Virus genome (UHGV): UHGV-0124463
Length of the DNA stretch: 44,748 nt
Direction: 5' to 3' (one strand)
Source of the DNA: a virus
The notes under the pieces are model-generated. The model made no database searches, was not told where the DNA came from, and saw nothing but the letters and a program-made list of their open reading frames with translations. Below are positions 12,546-23,947 of this stretch, piece by piece (the stretch's first letter is position 1; each line of letters opens with the position of its first letter). A program made the translations under genes and the position numbers.

Positions 12546-12789
12546 GGTGGGAGACATGGTTGGAGCAGACCTCGCTACCCGGGCAGGTGCAGCAGTTACC
12601 GGCGCTACGGTATCAGGAGGTTGGTTGGCAGAGTTAATGAGCTGGAACTGGAGCACTATCAGCTTCATCACTGCGACTGTGTGCGCAGTGCTAACCCTGG
12701 CGTGGAATGCGTATTACAAGCGACGTACATTCAAGCTCCTAGAAGAGCAGGCGCGTAAGGGGACTATTAAATATGAGTTTAAGGACTAA
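12538..12789 (+). CDS. holin (pinholin-like) candidate
   Basis: 83 aa, weakly hydrophobic Gly/Ala-rich first segment and strongly hydrophobic second helix, charged C-terminus; sits immediately upstream of the SAR endolysin. Confidence 0.45.
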   Translation: MIKVGDMVGADLATRAGAAVTGATVSGGWLAELMSWNWSTISFITATVCAVLTLAWNAYYKRRTFKLLEEQARKGTIKYEFKD

Positions 12790-13381
12790 GGTTATTGCGG
12801 CCCTCACGGGGGCCACTATGCTGGGTGGTGCTATTACCGGGGTGGTTCAGCACAACGAGGGATTGAGCCTTACCGCCTATAAGGATAGTGCCGGTGTCCC
12901 TACAATCTGCTACGGGGAGACAAAGGGCGTCAAGATGGGCCAGAGAGCCACGCTGAGCGATTGTCAGAAGCAACTGATAGAATCAGCAGGGGCACATGCA
13001 AAGGCTCTTGACGGGCTTCCTATGCAGCTCTCTGACGTAGCTCTGGTTGGGTCTGTAGACTTCATTTATAACGTAGGCGTAGCTGGCTTCAACGGCAGTG
13101 CTGTGAAGCGGCACCTCAAAAGCCTGAATTACGCAGAAGCTGGAAAGGCCGTACTGGACTGGCGCTATATTAGCAAGTATCAGCAGAAATCCCCGGGCAT
13201 CGGTTGGGTGTACAAGGGCAGCAACCGCTGGACCTTCGACTGCTCTCAGTATATTAACGGGCAGCGCAATAAAGTGTGCTGGGGCCTATGGGAGCGCAGA
13301 CAGTGGCAGAGCAAGGCCATTGGGAATCAGTATAAGAATGTAAATGCTGCAGTGGCAGCTCTTACTAAGACCGGAGGATAA
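12773..13381 (+). CDS. SAR endolysin, T4-lysozyme-type muramidase
   Basis: N-terminal signal-anchor-release-like segment VIAALTGATMLGGAITGVV; catalytic E-8aa-D-5aa-T in NEGLSLTAYKDSAGVPT. Confidence 0.75.
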   Translation: MSLRTKVIAALTGATMLGGAITGVVQHNEGLSLTAYKDSAGVPTICYGETKGVKMGQRATLSDCQKQLIESAGAHAKALDGLPMQLSDVALVGSVDFIYNVGVAGFNGSAVKRHLKSLNYAEAGKAVLDWRYISKYQQKSPGIGWVYKGSNRWTFDCSQYINGQRNKVCWGLWERRQWQSKAIGNQYKNVNAAVAALTKTGG

Positions 13382-17202: not shown

Positions 17203-17231
17203 TTGACACCGCGAAGAACATAAGCTAGATT
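17203..17231 (+). promoter_or_regulatory. sigma70-like promoter candidate (TTGACA-N17-TAGATT)
   Basis: Consensus -35 hexamer and 17-bp spacer read directly. Confidence 0.45.
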
Positions 17232-18964: not shown

Positions 18965-19179
18965 GCAAGCAGGACATTTATGACGTATATAAGCGCCCTA
19001 ATGGGTTTCTTTACCGGGTACCTCTATGTAGTCCACTGCACGCCCTCGCAGAATTCTATGCAGAGGAGACTAGACTGTGGTTGCCGTCCAGTCACACAGT
19101 TGGCGGGGTGGTAATGCTAAGTTGTAGCACCCTTGTGGCCCGCAACGTGGTATTCAAGGATAGCGCATGCTCACAGTAG
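18961..19179 (+). CDS. hypothetical early protein
   Basis: 72-aa ORF in tight tandem with neighbours. Confidence 0.4.
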   Translation: MSKQDIYDVYKRPNGFLYRVPLCSPLHALAEFYAEETRLWLPSSHTVGGVVMLSCSTLVARNVVFKDSACSQ

Positions 19180-19511
19180 ACGAAACAGCGCTGCTGTGCT
19201 GGCGTCTGCTGGAAACGCAGGGCAAGTGCGGTTGCACTTGGGAAACATTCAAAGAGGTTCCTAATGAACTCAAGCAAATCGTGCCAGTTGAGCGTCGATT
19301 ACTCCGAGTTAGAAAAGAGGATATTGGCACTGTTCTCACAACCTATCGAGAGTACACTGAGTCTGCCGCGCGGAAGCTGCAAGAGCACATTGCATTCGAT
19401 GTGGTTGCAGCACTACGGCGGAATGGATACCGCGGAGCTTTTAAGCAATTTAGAGCCGCAGTCCGCGCCTATTATAAGCAGCAACAACTCTCCGCGTGGT
19501 ACGCACGCTGA
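19167..19511 (+). CDS. hypothetical early protein
   Basis: 114-aa ORF with protein-like balanced composition; overlaps upstream stop by 13 nt. Confidence 0.4.
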   Translation: MLTVDETALLCWRLLETQGKCGCTWETFKEVPNELKQIVPVERRLLRVRKEDIGTVLTTYREYTESAARKLQEHIAFDVVAALRRNGYRGAFKQFRAAVRAYYKQQQLSAWYAR

Positions 19512-19542
19512 ACTCTTAGTGCATGACGAAGTTCTATTAACT

Positions 19543-21234
19543 CGGGAGCAAATGAAAATGCAAGAAACTAACACAGCACCTATCGAATGGAAAGTAGTGT
19601 TACCGGAAGGTGCAAACGCACTGCCGATTAAAGAATCAATGTATTCCAGCGGTGATTACTGGACCCCGTTCCAGGACTTGCAAATGCAAGGGGAGGACCA
19701 TCCCCACACTGAGGGTCCGCTGCAGGTGCTTATGGGTCTCCGCACTGTCAGTGCGCACACTCCAGGCTTAGAGGTGACTATAGGCGGGGCACTGCACCCA
19801 GAGTATCGCGAATCAACGATGACGCTCGGCCCGTTGCAAAAGGTGGACCTGTACCGGTCCGGAACTTTCTGCGAACTCTTTGAACCGGTGCGAATCACCA
19901 TAGACAGCAAGTTCTGGGAACGCCGCCGCGACTTCTATGAGGGCGAGGATGTAGTGGTTGAGCGCGTAGTTGCTTGCGTCGAAGAATTCACAGGTTACAA
20001 GGTGCACAAGCAGGCCGTGCAGTTATTTGAGCGCATCATGCTTGCACCAGAAGAGCAGCAGCGCCGCTTATACACTGGCTACGATTACGGCCGCCACACC
20101 CGCGATGGCAACTTAGCTGCGCTGCTCATGAAGTTGCACGGCTTCGTAGTGTCTAGATTCGCCGTGCCTTTGGGCTTTGGTTTCCGCAACGGCGAACCTA
20201 TCGTGATGCTGGGGCAGCCGCGGATGCACAAGGACTTCGCAGCAGTTACTGAGTACCGCTGCGTAGAGATGCGCGTAGGTAAGTGGCTCGCTAACTACTA
20301 CGGAAATGGTGTGGACTTCCGCGATGCTATCGAAGACCTCAAGGCTATGAACGTAGACCCTACAACGTACCTGTGCAAGACCGAGCAGGAATGGTACGAC
20401 GCCTACGAGAATGGCCCGGGTAGCTGCATGAGCGGGTACTCATTTGAGCATAGCTCTGTGCGGACGTACGCTACCACCAGCCACGGGTTGCCGGATAATG
20501 GGCTGCGCCTGTTCATCCAGTACACCGGGGAGCTGTTCGGCGACGATTTCGAAGTGCAGGCACGGGCAATCGTTAACACAGAAACTAACGAGTACGTCCG
20601 CGCTTACGGCAACGCTGCGGATGCAATCCTGCGGGGGCATGGGTACACCAAAAACATTGAATGTCTCGAAGGGGTAATGCTGGCGCGAATACCGCACCCA
20701 ACATACAACGGCGCAGTGCTGATGCCATACCTAGATAGCAGCCAGTGCGGCGTAGATGAGTATGGGGATGATGCCTTTGTAATCCGTGATGCTTATGAGT
20801 ACGAGGCACAAGACTCAGAAGGATACATCTACGTAGGCACTGAGTCTGCTCGGTGCTGCTGCTGTGAATGTCGCCACTCTGTAGATGACATGCAGGAGAC
20901 CGCAGATGGTGATATGGTCTGCGACGGCTGCGTAGAAGAAGGGGATTTTGTGTACGTAGTTGGGCGTGATGGTCTGCATAATCGCTGGAGCTGCACCTGG
21001 TCTGATTACCACGACGCCTATGTATACGACGAGGACATAGAGCGCTGCGAAGTAGAGGGTGTAGTGCACGACCAAGAGGAACTGGTGTTTGCACAGGACC
21101 GGCAAGTGCTTATTGAGCACGCAGAAGAACACCCAGTGCACGGGTTAATTCTCACTGAGCATGCAGCTGATTGCTTGGGAGAGAAGTACCTGGGCAACGA
21201 TGAAGATGAAGAAGAAGCAGAGGAGGCAGCTTAA
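19543..21234 (+). CDS. large acidic early protein with cysteine cluster, unknown function
   Basis: Start chosen at ATG 19543 (RBS GGGAG); the track ORF extends to 19264 but that extension is Ser/Pro-rich and overlaps 19167..19511; CCCCECRH...CDGC cluster; acidic tail DEDEEEAEEAA. Confidence 0.5.
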   Translation, partial: REQMKMQETNTAPIEWKVVLPEGANALPIKESMYSSGDYWTPFQDLQMQGEDHPHTEGPLQVLMGLRTVSAHTPGLEVTIGGALHPEYRESTMTLGPLQKVDLYRSGTFCELFEPVRITIDSKFWERRRDFYEGEDVVVERVVACVEEFTGYKVHKQAVQLFERIMLAPEEQQRRLYTGYDYGRHTRDGNLAALLMKLHGFVVSRFAVPLGFGFRNGEPIVMLGQPRMHKDFAAVTEYRCVEMRVGKWLANYYGNGVDFRDAIEDLKAMNVDPTTYLCKTEQEWYDAYENGPGSCMSGYSFEHSSVRTYATTSHGLPDNGLRLFIQYTGELFGDDFEVQARAIVNTETNEYVRAYGNAADAILRGHGYTKNIECLEGVMLARIPHPTYNGAVLMPYLDSSQCGVDEYGDDAFVIRDAYEYEAQDSEGYIYVGTESARCCCCECRHSVDDMQETADGDMVCDGCVEEGDFVYVVGRDGLHNRWSCTWSDYHDAYVYDEDIERCEVEGVVHDQEELVFAQDRQVLIEHAEEHPVHGLILTEHAADCLGEKYLGNDEDEEEAEEAA

Positions 21235-22289
21235 TGTTCTTGAATCCGCACGGGATTGATATGCAGCTGCTCTTGCAGATACTGCAAACGCACCGGCCTA
21301 GCTGGGGTAGCACTAAGTGGTTCGAGCCGCTGCTTATGCAGTCGCTACAGGCACTTGGTAGCGGTGTGCACTACGTAAAGGATAAGCACGGGAACTACTT
21401 CGTGCTGGTGGGAGACTCAGAGCAAAGCGACGTAGCGTTTACATCGCACCTCGATACGGTGGCCCGTCCTGGTAGTGCAGCCCCGGACGTTGGTTGCACT
21501 AACAAGGGCATACTGTTCGTAAAGAATCCGCAACAAGCTGACTGCTTGGGGGCGGACTGCGGTGCTGGTATCTACCTGATGCTGGAGATGCTGCGGCGGG
21601 GTGTGCACGGACGCTACTGCTTCTTCGTGGATGAAGAGGTGGGCTGCGAAGGCAGCGCTGCATCGGTCAAGGATGACACTGGATTTTGGACTGGTGTCAA
21701 GGCGATGATTAGCTTTGACCGCCGCGGAGATGGTATCATTACGCACCAGCGGTACATGCGCTGCTGCTCTGATACCTTTGCCAAGACTCTGGCAGAGCGC
21801 CTAGGACGCACGGAGCAGCACTTACAAAAGGGTGTGTATACTGACTCAGCCGAGTTCGTCGGCATCATCCCTGAGTGCACCAACGTCGGTGTAGGGTACA
21901 TGCACGAGCACACTCCGGATGAGGTACTGGACCTGAACATCCTGGGGCAAGTGCTTGAGCGGGTACTGCAAGATGGTACGTTCTCGCACCTTCCGATTGA
22001 GCGGGACCCGAAGGTAGTAGAGACGGACCAATGGCTCTCTACATCTACTCTGAGTTTCCGGCAGCCGTGGGACATGCCCCCGGACGAGGACCCGCAATTG
22101 CTGGCTGCGTTCCGTGTAGTGTCACAGCTTTCTAAACAGCAACTGATTAGCTGGGTGCAGGAGAATCCAGAGAAGGCGGCGGAGTACATCATGGTGTTCT
22201 CCGATTATGGCTTCAAAGAGGAGCTGATTGAACTAGGCACCCGAGTCGTAGAAGACTGGGGCGGATACGATAATATTGTGGAGGGTTGA
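21234..22289 (+). CDS. metallopeptidase candidate (M20/M28-like zinc hydrolase motif set)
   Basis: Ordered motifs HLDTV, GADCGAG, DEEVGCEGS, and a later HEH; 351 aa. Confidence 0.4.
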   Translation: MFLNPHGIDMQLLLQILQTHRPSWGSTKWFEPLLMQSLQALGSGVHYVKDKHGNYFVLVGDSEQSDVAFTSHLDTVARPGSAAPDVGCTNKGILFVKNPQQADCLGADCGAGIYLMLEMLRRGVHGRYCFFVDEEVGCEGSAASVKDDTGFWTGVKAMISFDRRGDGIITHQRYMRCCSDTFAKTLAERLGRTEQHLQKGVYTDSAEFVGIIPECTNVGVGYMHEHTPDEVLDLNILGQVLERVLQDGTFSHLPIERDPKVVETDQWLSTSTLSFRQPWDMPPDEDPQLLAAFRVVSQLSKQQLISWVQENPEKAAEYIMVFSDYGFKEELIELGTRVVEDWGGYDNIVEG

Positions 22290-22738
22290 TTATGTCTAAA
22301 CTTTTTCAAGTGGGTGATAAGGTTCAGCGCATCAATAAGATTGAAGGTAAGACCATGCGCGGCGAGATAGTCACTAAGGGGCCTGGCCTCTGTATAGACA
22401 TCAAGCTAACCGAAGGAGCAGGGATTCGTTATGCCGGGGATATCTATGGCGGCTCTGCCGACTTCTGGCAGCTAATCGAGGAGGCGGACGAGCTGCCACC
22501 GGTTCCGTCTAGTGTAGCATATTTAAACACTAAACGAGACCCAGGAAACGACCAGCGGCTGGTATTAGAAAAGGACAGCGAGACTAACGAAGGACTACTA
22601 TACATCGGAATAGTGCCTAGAAAAGGCAGCACCCGGGCAGAGCGAGAGATTGGTATTAATATGAGCCCCGATTCAGCCCTGCAGTTGGCACATGACATTC
22701 GTCGAATGGCTATGAAAGTTAAGCGAGAGATTCAGTAA
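22286..22738 (+). CDS. hypothetical protein
   Basis: 150-aa ORF overlapping neighbours by 4 nt and 1 nt. Confidence 0.45.
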   Translation: MIMSKLFQVGDKVQRINKIEGKTMRGEIVTKGPGLCIDIKLTEGAGIRYAGDIYGGSADFWQLIEEADELPPVPSSVAYLNTKRDPGNDQRLVLEKDSETNEGLLYIGIVPRKGSTRAEREIGINMSPDSALQLAHDIRRMAMKVKREIQ

Positions 22739-23529
22739 TGGACCAGCCCTGGCTTAGAGCGTGCAAGCGCCTGGCCGTGGGGCAGAGGGCACGCTTTCGG
22801 TGCTGCGGCAGGGACGCCGCCGGGGTGCTCTACAATAACCCTGATGCCTGGGAATACTATTGCCACCGCTGTAAACAGGTGGGCAAGGAGCACAAGCAGT
22901 ACCAGCGCATACAGTTACAGGAAGAGCCGAGGGTGCAGCCCTCTGCACCTGCAGATGCAATTTGCATTAGCCAAGCGCCTGCGGAAACGCAGAGTTTTCT
23001 TTACGGATTCCTGACCACAAAGGGAATCATGCCTGAAATGGTGGAGGATGCAGAATGGAGCAAAGAGAAACAGCGGATAATATTCCGTGTCGGAAGCGCT
23101 GCTCTGGGCCGTGCAGTGCATGCCCGACAGCAACCGAAGTGGGTAATGTACGGCCAGCCAATGCCGTTCGCTGCCGCGGCACCTGCCGTAGCGCCGGATG
23201 TAGCTGCGGCCGCACCTCTAAAGGTCGTGCTCACCGAGGACTATCTATCAGCGATCAAATATCAGCACGCGATTACGAACTACTCTGCAATGAACGTGCA
23301 GGCTATAGCTATGCTGGGTACTCGCTTGCCCGTGCAGTTAAGGGCGTGGCTGATACAGAACAAACCGACAGTGATACTGTCCCTGGATAATGACCAAGCG
23401 GGACACTCCGGCGCGGCCATGATACGGCGCGCGCTACGTCCCTTTATGTCGTGCCACGAAATCTACTACGACGGGGACCCAAAAGAGGCAACAATACAGG
23501 AGTTATTAGATGGTATTAGGCGCGTGTAA
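22738..23529 (+). CDS. DNA primase (zinc-ribbon + TOPRIM)
   Basis: N-terminal CCGRD...YYCHRC zinc-binding motif; TOPRIM-like TEDYLSAIKYQH and LSLDNDQAG. Confidence 0.65.
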   Translation: MDQPWLRACKRLAVGQRARFRCCGRDAAGVLYNNPDAWEYYCHRCKQVGKEHKQYQRIQLQEEPRVQPSAPADAICISQAPAETQSFLYGFLTTKGIMPEMVEDAEWSKEKQRIIFRVGSAALGRAVHARQQPKWVMYGQPMPFAAAAPAVAPDVAAAAPLKVVLTEDYLSAIKYQHAITNYSAMNVQAIAMLGTRLPVQLRAWLIQNKPTVILSLDNDQAGHSGAAMIRRALRPFMSCHEIYYDGDPKEATIQELLDGIRRV

Positions 23530-23947
23530 AGAGCACAAACAGAAAGGCGGACCAAAGGGTTACGGAAATACCCCGTTCAAAGGGCGGAAGATACCCCTGC
23601 ATAGAGAGGTGTATTGCTCGGCGAACGATATATCTCCGGAGAGCATAGTGGGGCTAGTTGTGCGCCATAAGTGTGACAACCCGAGATGTATTAATCCCGA
23701 GCATTTAGAATTAGGTACGGTCAAGGATAACGTCCATGACTGTATTGCCCGGGGTAGGGCTAGACGTGGAGTTTCTAAAGGGGAGCAGAATGGGTACTCC
23801 AAGCTAACAGCGCAGCAGGTGGACTATATCAGGAAGACCTACAGGCGGTACAGCAGGGAACACGGCACACCGGCCATAGCTGCTAGCCTTGGTGTAAGTG
23901 TGTCAGCAGTGCACGATGTATTGAAAGCTAAAACTTGGAGGCTCTAA
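23510..23947 (+). CDS. HNH homing endonuclease (paralog 1 of 3)
   Basis: Motif LVVRHKCDNPRCINPEHLELGTVKDNVHD; overlaps primase 3' end. Confidence 0.7.
   Translation: MVLGACKEHKQKGGPKGYGNTPFKGRKIPLHREVYCSANDISPESIVGLVVRHKCDNPRCINPEHLELGTVKDNVHDCIARGRARRGVSKGEQNGYSKLTAQQVDYIRKTYRRYSREHGTPAIAASLGVSVSAVHDVLKAKTWRL

Follow-up and report, generated by a model that had tools for sequence, protein, structure and literature searches.

The window analysed here is the whole 44,748-nucleotide (nt) stretch of the virus genome UHGV-0124463. It is the genome of a Drulisvirus (KP34-like; Autographiviridae, Slopekvirinae) and, over positions 1-44748, looks complete and circularly permuted. Our subject is a putative peptidase gene of the early block, located 5' of the primase, helicase and DNA polymerase genes, together with the longer gene directly upstream, referred to below as the partner. 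The pair comprises the following features:

19264..21234, plus strand: partner gene, 656 amino acids (aa), PHROG 6980 (no annotated function), directly 5' of the peptidase gene
21220..21226, plus strand: Shine-Dalgarno sequence GAGGAGG, read directly from the sequence, 7 nt 5' of the peptidase ATG and within the 3' end of the upstream gene
21234..22289, plus strand: peptidase gene, 351 aa plus stop, homologue of KP34 gp11 and KpV74 gp10, PHROG 4191
21234..22013, plus strand: clan MH catalytic domain, residues 1-260, without the M20 lid and without the M42 PDZ-like insert
22014..22286, plus strand: C-terminal helical tail of about 90 aa, acidic (isoelectric point, pI, 4.05), from a low-confidence part of the model and specific to the Drulisvirus-like lineage

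The peptidase reading frame is intact and encodes an acidic protein (pI 4.8), and its ATG overlaps the stop codon of the partner gene (TAATG, 21232-21236). A scan for promoters and terminators around the gene returned sites no more numerous than in shuffled sequence. Relative to its homologues the gene has a ratio of nonsynonymous to synonymous substitution (dN/dS) of 0.04-0.08 and is under strong purifying selection. An earlier note on this DNA, made from the letters alone, had singled out four motifs in an early gene here, and all four are present in the 351-aa plus-strand open reading frame (ORF): HLDTV at residues 72-76, GADCGAG at 106-112, DEEVGCEGS at 133-141 and HEH at 224-226. The residues predicted to bind metal, with their conservation among 214 representatives of clusters at no more than 50% identity, are encoded as follows:

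21447..21449, plus strand: codon of H72, predicted first metal ligand, in HLDTV; aligned with the His of PepT 'SHMDTV'; 99.5%
21555..21557, plus strand: codon of D108, predicted bridging ligand, in GADCGAG (GADDKAG in most relatives); 99.5%
21633..21638, plus strand: codons of E134 and E135, predicted general base and metal ligand, aligned with PepT 'GEESG'; 100%
21717..21719, plus strand: codon of D162, predicted fourth ligand, in ISFDRRG at the end of strand 157-163; 100%
21909..21911, plus strand: codon of H226, predicted fifth ligand, the second His of HEH, aligned with the His of PepT 'EEIHTTNE'; 100%

The earlier note had read its motifs as the metal-ligand pattern of M20, M28 and M42 peptidases. 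That reading stands for H72, D108, E134-E135, D162 and H226, which are 99.5-100% conserved, and D74 reaches 99.5% as well; within HEH it stands for the second histidine only, H224 not being conserved. In HMMER alignments, H72, D108, E134-E135 and H226 fall in register with SHMDTV, GADDKAG, GEESG and IHT of PepT-like chains and are in register with TET1 as well, and the motifs GGGSDA and HTxxE are common to the phage protein and the PepT-like chains. Successive ligands are spaced by 36/27/27/64 residues. Cysteines C177, C178 and C215 were considered as an obligatory extra metal site or disulfide and rejected, given that Ala replaces C178 in 7% of sequences and that conservation is 98.6% for C215 and below 90% for C177.

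The predicted structure agrees with a clan MH fold. An AlphaFold2 model built from 41 diverse homologues has a mean predicted local distance difference test (pLDDT) score of 84, with residues 1-260 mostly above 90 and the last ~90 poorly defined. Its Foldseek matches in the PDB are PepT (3gb0, 1.5e-11), M42 TET aminopeptidases and lid-less constructs of the DapE catalytic domain. Both the alpha/beta catalytic-domain fold of clan MH and its ordered ligand set (His/Asp/Glu-Glu/Asp or Glu/His) are thus present in the model and the sequence. Profile searches likewise favored a peptidase: PHROG 4191 ("peptidase") matches over the full length (E 5e-156, residues 6-350), and Pfam M28 (PF04389) scores 22.8 bits against a gathering cutoff of 21.3 (E 8.5e-5), a marginal membership that covers residues 58-167 only.

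Placement within the clan is best described by what the protein lacks. It has the single-domain architecture of M28. The Pfam M20 model gave no match to the peptidase, and matches to the NCBIfam models for PepT-like proteins, allantoate amidohydrolase and LysW-lysine hydrolase fell far under their cutoffs. An M20 enzyme with a lid between the fourth ligand and the last histidine was rejected, since PepT has 151 residues (151-301) where the query has 38 (144-181), and only 64 residues separate D162 from H226. An M42 enzyme with a PDZ-like insert was set aside as well; H72 and D108 lie just 36 residues apart, and the alignment to TET1 skips approximately chain residues 66-165. Glutaminyl cyclases, mono-zinc enzymes of the M28 fold, have a reduced ligand set in which the first His and the fourth ligand are missing; no such reduction is seen in the phage protein. 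In the short stretch standing in for the lid, R163, Q172, S179 and, at 92%, C178 are invariant or near-invariant and specific to this family, and further family-specific conservation is found at E214, C215, N217 and R257. The C-terminal tail of the Drulisvirus protein was rejected as a family-wide domain, being present in close relatives plus two others only; the extensions of other lineages are unrelated to it. Because of the fold, the ligand conservation and the dN/dS, we consider it very likely that the gene encodes an active co-catalytic metallohydrolase of clan MH.

The partner has a conserved core at about residues 330-590 (GPxSCM, R434, VRxYG and MPYLD), with a CxxC...CxxC cluster after it. 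In two other phages the gene found 5' of the peptidase is a homologue of the partner (5e-34 for Vibrio phage VP93, 2e-8 for Pectobacterium phage Peat1). No match to the core was found in Pfam, in PDB sequences searched by profile, or in any annotated PHROG. Relatives of the partner in large-database searches were all at least 79% identical among the 120 matches listed, and a 611-aa protein (P0122) is 100% identical to it. An ORF of 114 aa (19167-19511, plus strand) overlaps the 5' end of the partner in another frame, and the annotations of KpV74 (gp08, gp09) and KP34 (p09) show the same overlap; the true start of the partner is therefore uncertain.

The two genes travel together. In the phage database, records of the peptidase and of the partner are identical in number for Klebsiella (232), Vibrio (42), Escherichia (10) and Shigella (4). 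Neighborhoods were searched with a hidden Markov model (HMM) built from the partner core. In 36 of 46 diverse IMG/VR loci with sufficient upstream sequence, where the peptidases are 31-45% identical to the query, the gene immediately 5' of the peptidase and on its strand encodes a partner homologue; three more loci have one within ~1 kb. In bacterial genomes and metagenome-assembled genomes (MAGs), the partner adjoins the peptidase at nine of 14 loci, two of which (L014 and L023) were not among the sequences used for the HMM. In the Spirochaetaceae MAG, the order of the two genes is inverted. The loci concerned are:

Loci noted for the partner: window 19264-21234 (plus strand), L011, L013-L015, L017, L018, L022, L023 and L063-L114
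Nine partner-paired bacterial loci: Bradyrhizobium, Microvirga, a Rhizobiales isolate, Flavobacteriaceae, Bacteroidota, Phycisphaerales, an unclassified Proteobacteria MAG, Burkholderiaceae and a Spirochaetaceae MAG

Peptidase and partner thus form a two-gene module across phages of many bacterial phyla. No fusion of the two was seen among 266 family members.

In the window the C-terminal tail of the partner reads ...GNDEDEEEAEEAA (21190-21231) and closes on an acidic ...EEAEEAA; another partner ends in ...LELDLALAA. Most partner proteins end in an acidic run. Ala is the last residue in 18 of 35 clusters, and 10 of these close with Ala-Ala; such ends resemble an ssrA-type degron for ClpX. One possibility is that the adjacent exopeptidase binds or cleaves the tail; another is that the tail is a by-product of the overlapping ribosome-binding site.

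The peptidase family itself is broad. A profile search of 1.84 billion cluster representatives (50% identity) recovered 8,602 proteins at E <= 1e-3, of which 2,588 reach E <= 1e-30. Hosts recorded in the phage database are Klebsiella, Vibrio, Pectobacterium, Escherichia, Thermus, Bacillus and Cellulophaga, and huge uncultured phages also carry the gene. Some of the latter encode several paralogues per genome (five matching places in LR745206.1; L071 and L098 in IMGVR_UViG_3300042878_001826). A pattern scan that took a single genome for each bacterial or archaeal species found at least 14 true members among the matches listed, mostly on MAG contigs with few isolates (Bradyrhizobium, Microvirga, Rhizobiales); the other matches listed are ordinary cellular PepT-like genes that match in the N-terminal half only.

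Several members carry additions to the same core. One (P0295) has a C-terminal PcrA/UvrD Tudor domain (E 6e-9), an RNA polymerase-binding module, and another (P0328) has an N-terminal segment that appears Tudor-like by eye. An N-terminal extension recurs in nine members, namely P0328 and P0286/P0297/P0303/P0308/P0323/P0324/P0364/P0370, and two proteins (P0325 and P0341) give weak matches to a DnaJ-type, CXXCXGXG-like zinc finger. Such variable extensions and fusions suit an enzyme that is docked onto macromolecules.

Taking these observations together, we lean, with modest confidence, toward a composite reading in which the gene product is a lid-less exopeptidase or amidohydrolase of clan MH that works with or on the partner protein. 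The enzyme would be cytoplasmic and would use two metal ions, most likely zinc, held by H72, D108, E135, D162 and H226 as elsewhere in the clan. E134 would activate the metal-bridging water for attack on a terminal peptide or amide bond. Its catalytic domain would be PepT-like (M20B-like) without the lid and dimerization domain, followed by the lineage-specific helical tail of ~90 aa; because the lid is absent, the active site is probably open, as in single-domain M28 aminopeptidases. Specificity may then come from the partner or from the extensions in place of the lid. Because both genes travel together in phages of many phyla, a partnership with the 656-aa protein, rather than a free-standing metabolic role, is the most likely arrangement, with the partner either supplying lid-type specificity or being trimmed itself. 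The enzyme would act at the end of a protein or peptide, possibly the acidic, Ala-terminated tail of the partner itself. Here we infer the identity of the metal, the exopeptidase chemistry, the physical partnership, the target and the polarity.

Several points weigh against this reading. D162 is inferred as the fourth ligand because it is invariant and terminates a strand, with no clean alignment, and the HMMER register to TET1 is ambiguous by two residues at this site. The large-phage subfamily (contigs of 45-476 kb) has at most a weak partner-like ORF just downstream of the peptidase, so that the enzyme can evidently work without a strong adjacent partner, and synteny within Autographiviridae could partly stem from common descent. 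The excess of Ala ends (binomial P ~5e-7 against a 15% background from all long ORFs at the same loci) is a crude estimate, uncorrected for the relatedness of the sequences. As the partner tail overlaps the ribosome-binding region of the peptidase gene, part of the Ala signal may be at the nucleotide level. Statistical support for a Tudor fusion exists in one member only. Finally, the full-text literature yielded annotation mentions in genome papers alone (PMC3082699, PMC4411677, PMC6115819), and no functional study of any family member was found.

A bolder version, which we regard as rather unlikely, is that the pair constitutes an undescribed two-component phage module, widespread in phages of Proteobacteria, Bacteroidota, Planctomycetota and Spirochaetota. 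The partner would be a lid or specificity subunit acting in trans, or would be processed at its ssrA-degron-like Ala-Ala tail, and the pair would modify a host protein during takeover or defense evasion; some relatives would be docked to RNA polymerase through the Tudor domain.

Alternatively, the enzyme could be a free-standing aminopeptidase or tripeptidase that scavenges nutrients, converting host peptides to amino acids for phage protein synthesis independently of its neighbors. PepT-type tripeptidases are its nearest relatives in both structure and sequence, the large-phage subfamily lacks an adjacent partner, and an open active site is what broad-specificity M28 aminopeptidases possess. 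The tight pairing in most lineages, one of them with inverted order, nevertheless argues against independence, and docking-type extensions and fusions would be needless for bulk peptide use. The Klebsiella host presumably has general aminopeptidases of its own. We therefore judge scavenging to be unlikely.

More improbable is deacylation of small molecules in the manner of DapE, ArgE or carboxypeptidase G2, by which the enzyme would rewire host metabolism or strip a modification from a metabolite or nucleotide. Such chemistry belongs to the same structural neighborhood, as the Foldseek matches to lid-less DapE constructs indicate, but the lid that completes the active site of M20 deacylases is absent, and the lid-less constructs themselves (4h2k, 4onw) are reportedly inactive. 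NCBIfam models of the DapE/ArgE type score far below their cutoffs, and the consistent neighbor is a large non-metabolic partner instead of metabolic genes. We give very little weight to an inactive scaffold (pseudoenzyme) or to a mono-zinc, glutaminyl cyclase-like enzyme sharing the M28 fold, for which the conserved ligand set leaves little room. Least credible of all is a cell-wall peptidase acting on peptidoglycan stem peptides in lysis or entry: the earlier note raised it, and M20 and M28 enzymes can cleave amides of D/L-amino acids, yet the N-terminus has no hydrophobic stretch of the signal-peptide type (judged by eye), the gene lies beside replication genes in the early block and outside the lysis cassette, and the published KP34 table assigns the endolysin to another gene (KP34p56, 202 aa) and does not mark the peptidase as structural.

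The composite reading concerns two genes, and the rest of their surroundings can be summarized briefly. Gene order around the peptidase is the same as in KpV74. Two loci of a small downstream gene were noted:

22292..22738, plus strand: small downstream gene, ~148 aa from ATG 22292 (the ORF lister starts it at TTG 22286)
L003 4903-5337: locus of the downstream domain in a relative

The C-terminal domain of this gene is conserved in Drulisvirus and Phimunavirus, and in one Drulisvirus-like contig (L010 4290-5351, P0054) it is fused to the peptidase core, where it replaces the usual tail. Farther along, between the primase and helicase genes, lies an HNH homing endonuclease gene (23510-23947, plus strand, 145 aa, PHROG 6254, 4e-29), at whose position KpV74 has two small hypothetical genes. 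A strong sigma-70-like site is found at 17203-17231, and the early region begins nearby. The first 15.3 kb (from position 1) hold large ORFs whose sizes, and by size alone, match the internal virion, core and endolysin genes of KP34; an ORF of 202 aa at 12773..13381 equals KP34p56 in length. In a large viral contig, a gene for a RimB-like (PF05618) protease (L008 7059-7457) lies two genes 5' of the peptidase homologue.

As a sequence feature, the peptidase is ordinary and is already known at the level of annotation. Across more than 200 genomes of Drulisvirus Klebsiella phages the gene is 92-94% identical in nucleotides and the protein up to 97%; nucleotide matches extending over at least 80% of the gene's length occur in 240 phage records. 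Labels in Drulisvirus records are "peptidase", "putative peptidase" and "peptidase family M28 protein". KP34p11 has been a "putative peptidase" since 2011 (PMC3082699), and the gene is part of the core of the proposed "Kp34likevirus" genus (PMC4411677). The Pectobacterium phage homologue PhiM1_10 (IPR007484) was the only one of six conserved early-region ORFs to be given a putative function (PMC6115819). The earlier note's view that such an enzyme is unusual in a T7-like early region does not hold, as it is a core gene in three Autographiviridae lineages and, in KP34, is gp11. The sole potentially new element is the module formed by the partner and a lid-less peptidase. Since Drulisviruses are leading candidates for Klebsiella phage therapy, a conserved early enzyme that is uncharacterized leaves a gap in what is understood of the effects of these phages on the cell. 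The enzyme family is of mild importance in its own right, as it is very large, has few true members among the bacterial-genome matches listed and is under strong purifying selection.

Compared with known systems, the window's gene is the same as KP34 gp11, VP93 ORF7 and PhiM1 gp10, the 'putative peptidase' of phiKMV-like phages (PHROG 4191). In hundreds of Drulisvirus records it shows 92-97% protein identity and occupies the same position, in the order large hypothetical gene, peptidase, primase; the window's copy is 351 aa against 348 aa in many relatives and shows no substantive difference from KP34 gp11. Peptidase T and PepT-like tripeptidases (M20B; 3gb0, 3rza, 1fno, 1vix) carry a lid of ~110 residues between the fourth and fifth ligands that is absent from the phage protein. 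Identity to the PepT-like proteins is 22%, TIGR01883 scores 16.8 bits against a cutoff of 274 bits, and the phage protein has in addition the C-terminal tail and the invariant R163, Q172, S179, E214, C215 and R257. The M42 enzymes TET and FrvX (2cf4, 1y0r, 1ylo) differ in placing a PDZ-like oligomerization domain between the first and second ligands, which are separated by ~100 residues in TET1 as opposed to 36 here. Similar in plan are the M28 aminopeptidases of Aeromonas proteolytica (1rtq) and Streptomyces griseus (1cp7), which, like the phage protein, are single lid-less domains with similar ligand spacings (~20/35/27/77 in the Aeromonas enzyme).

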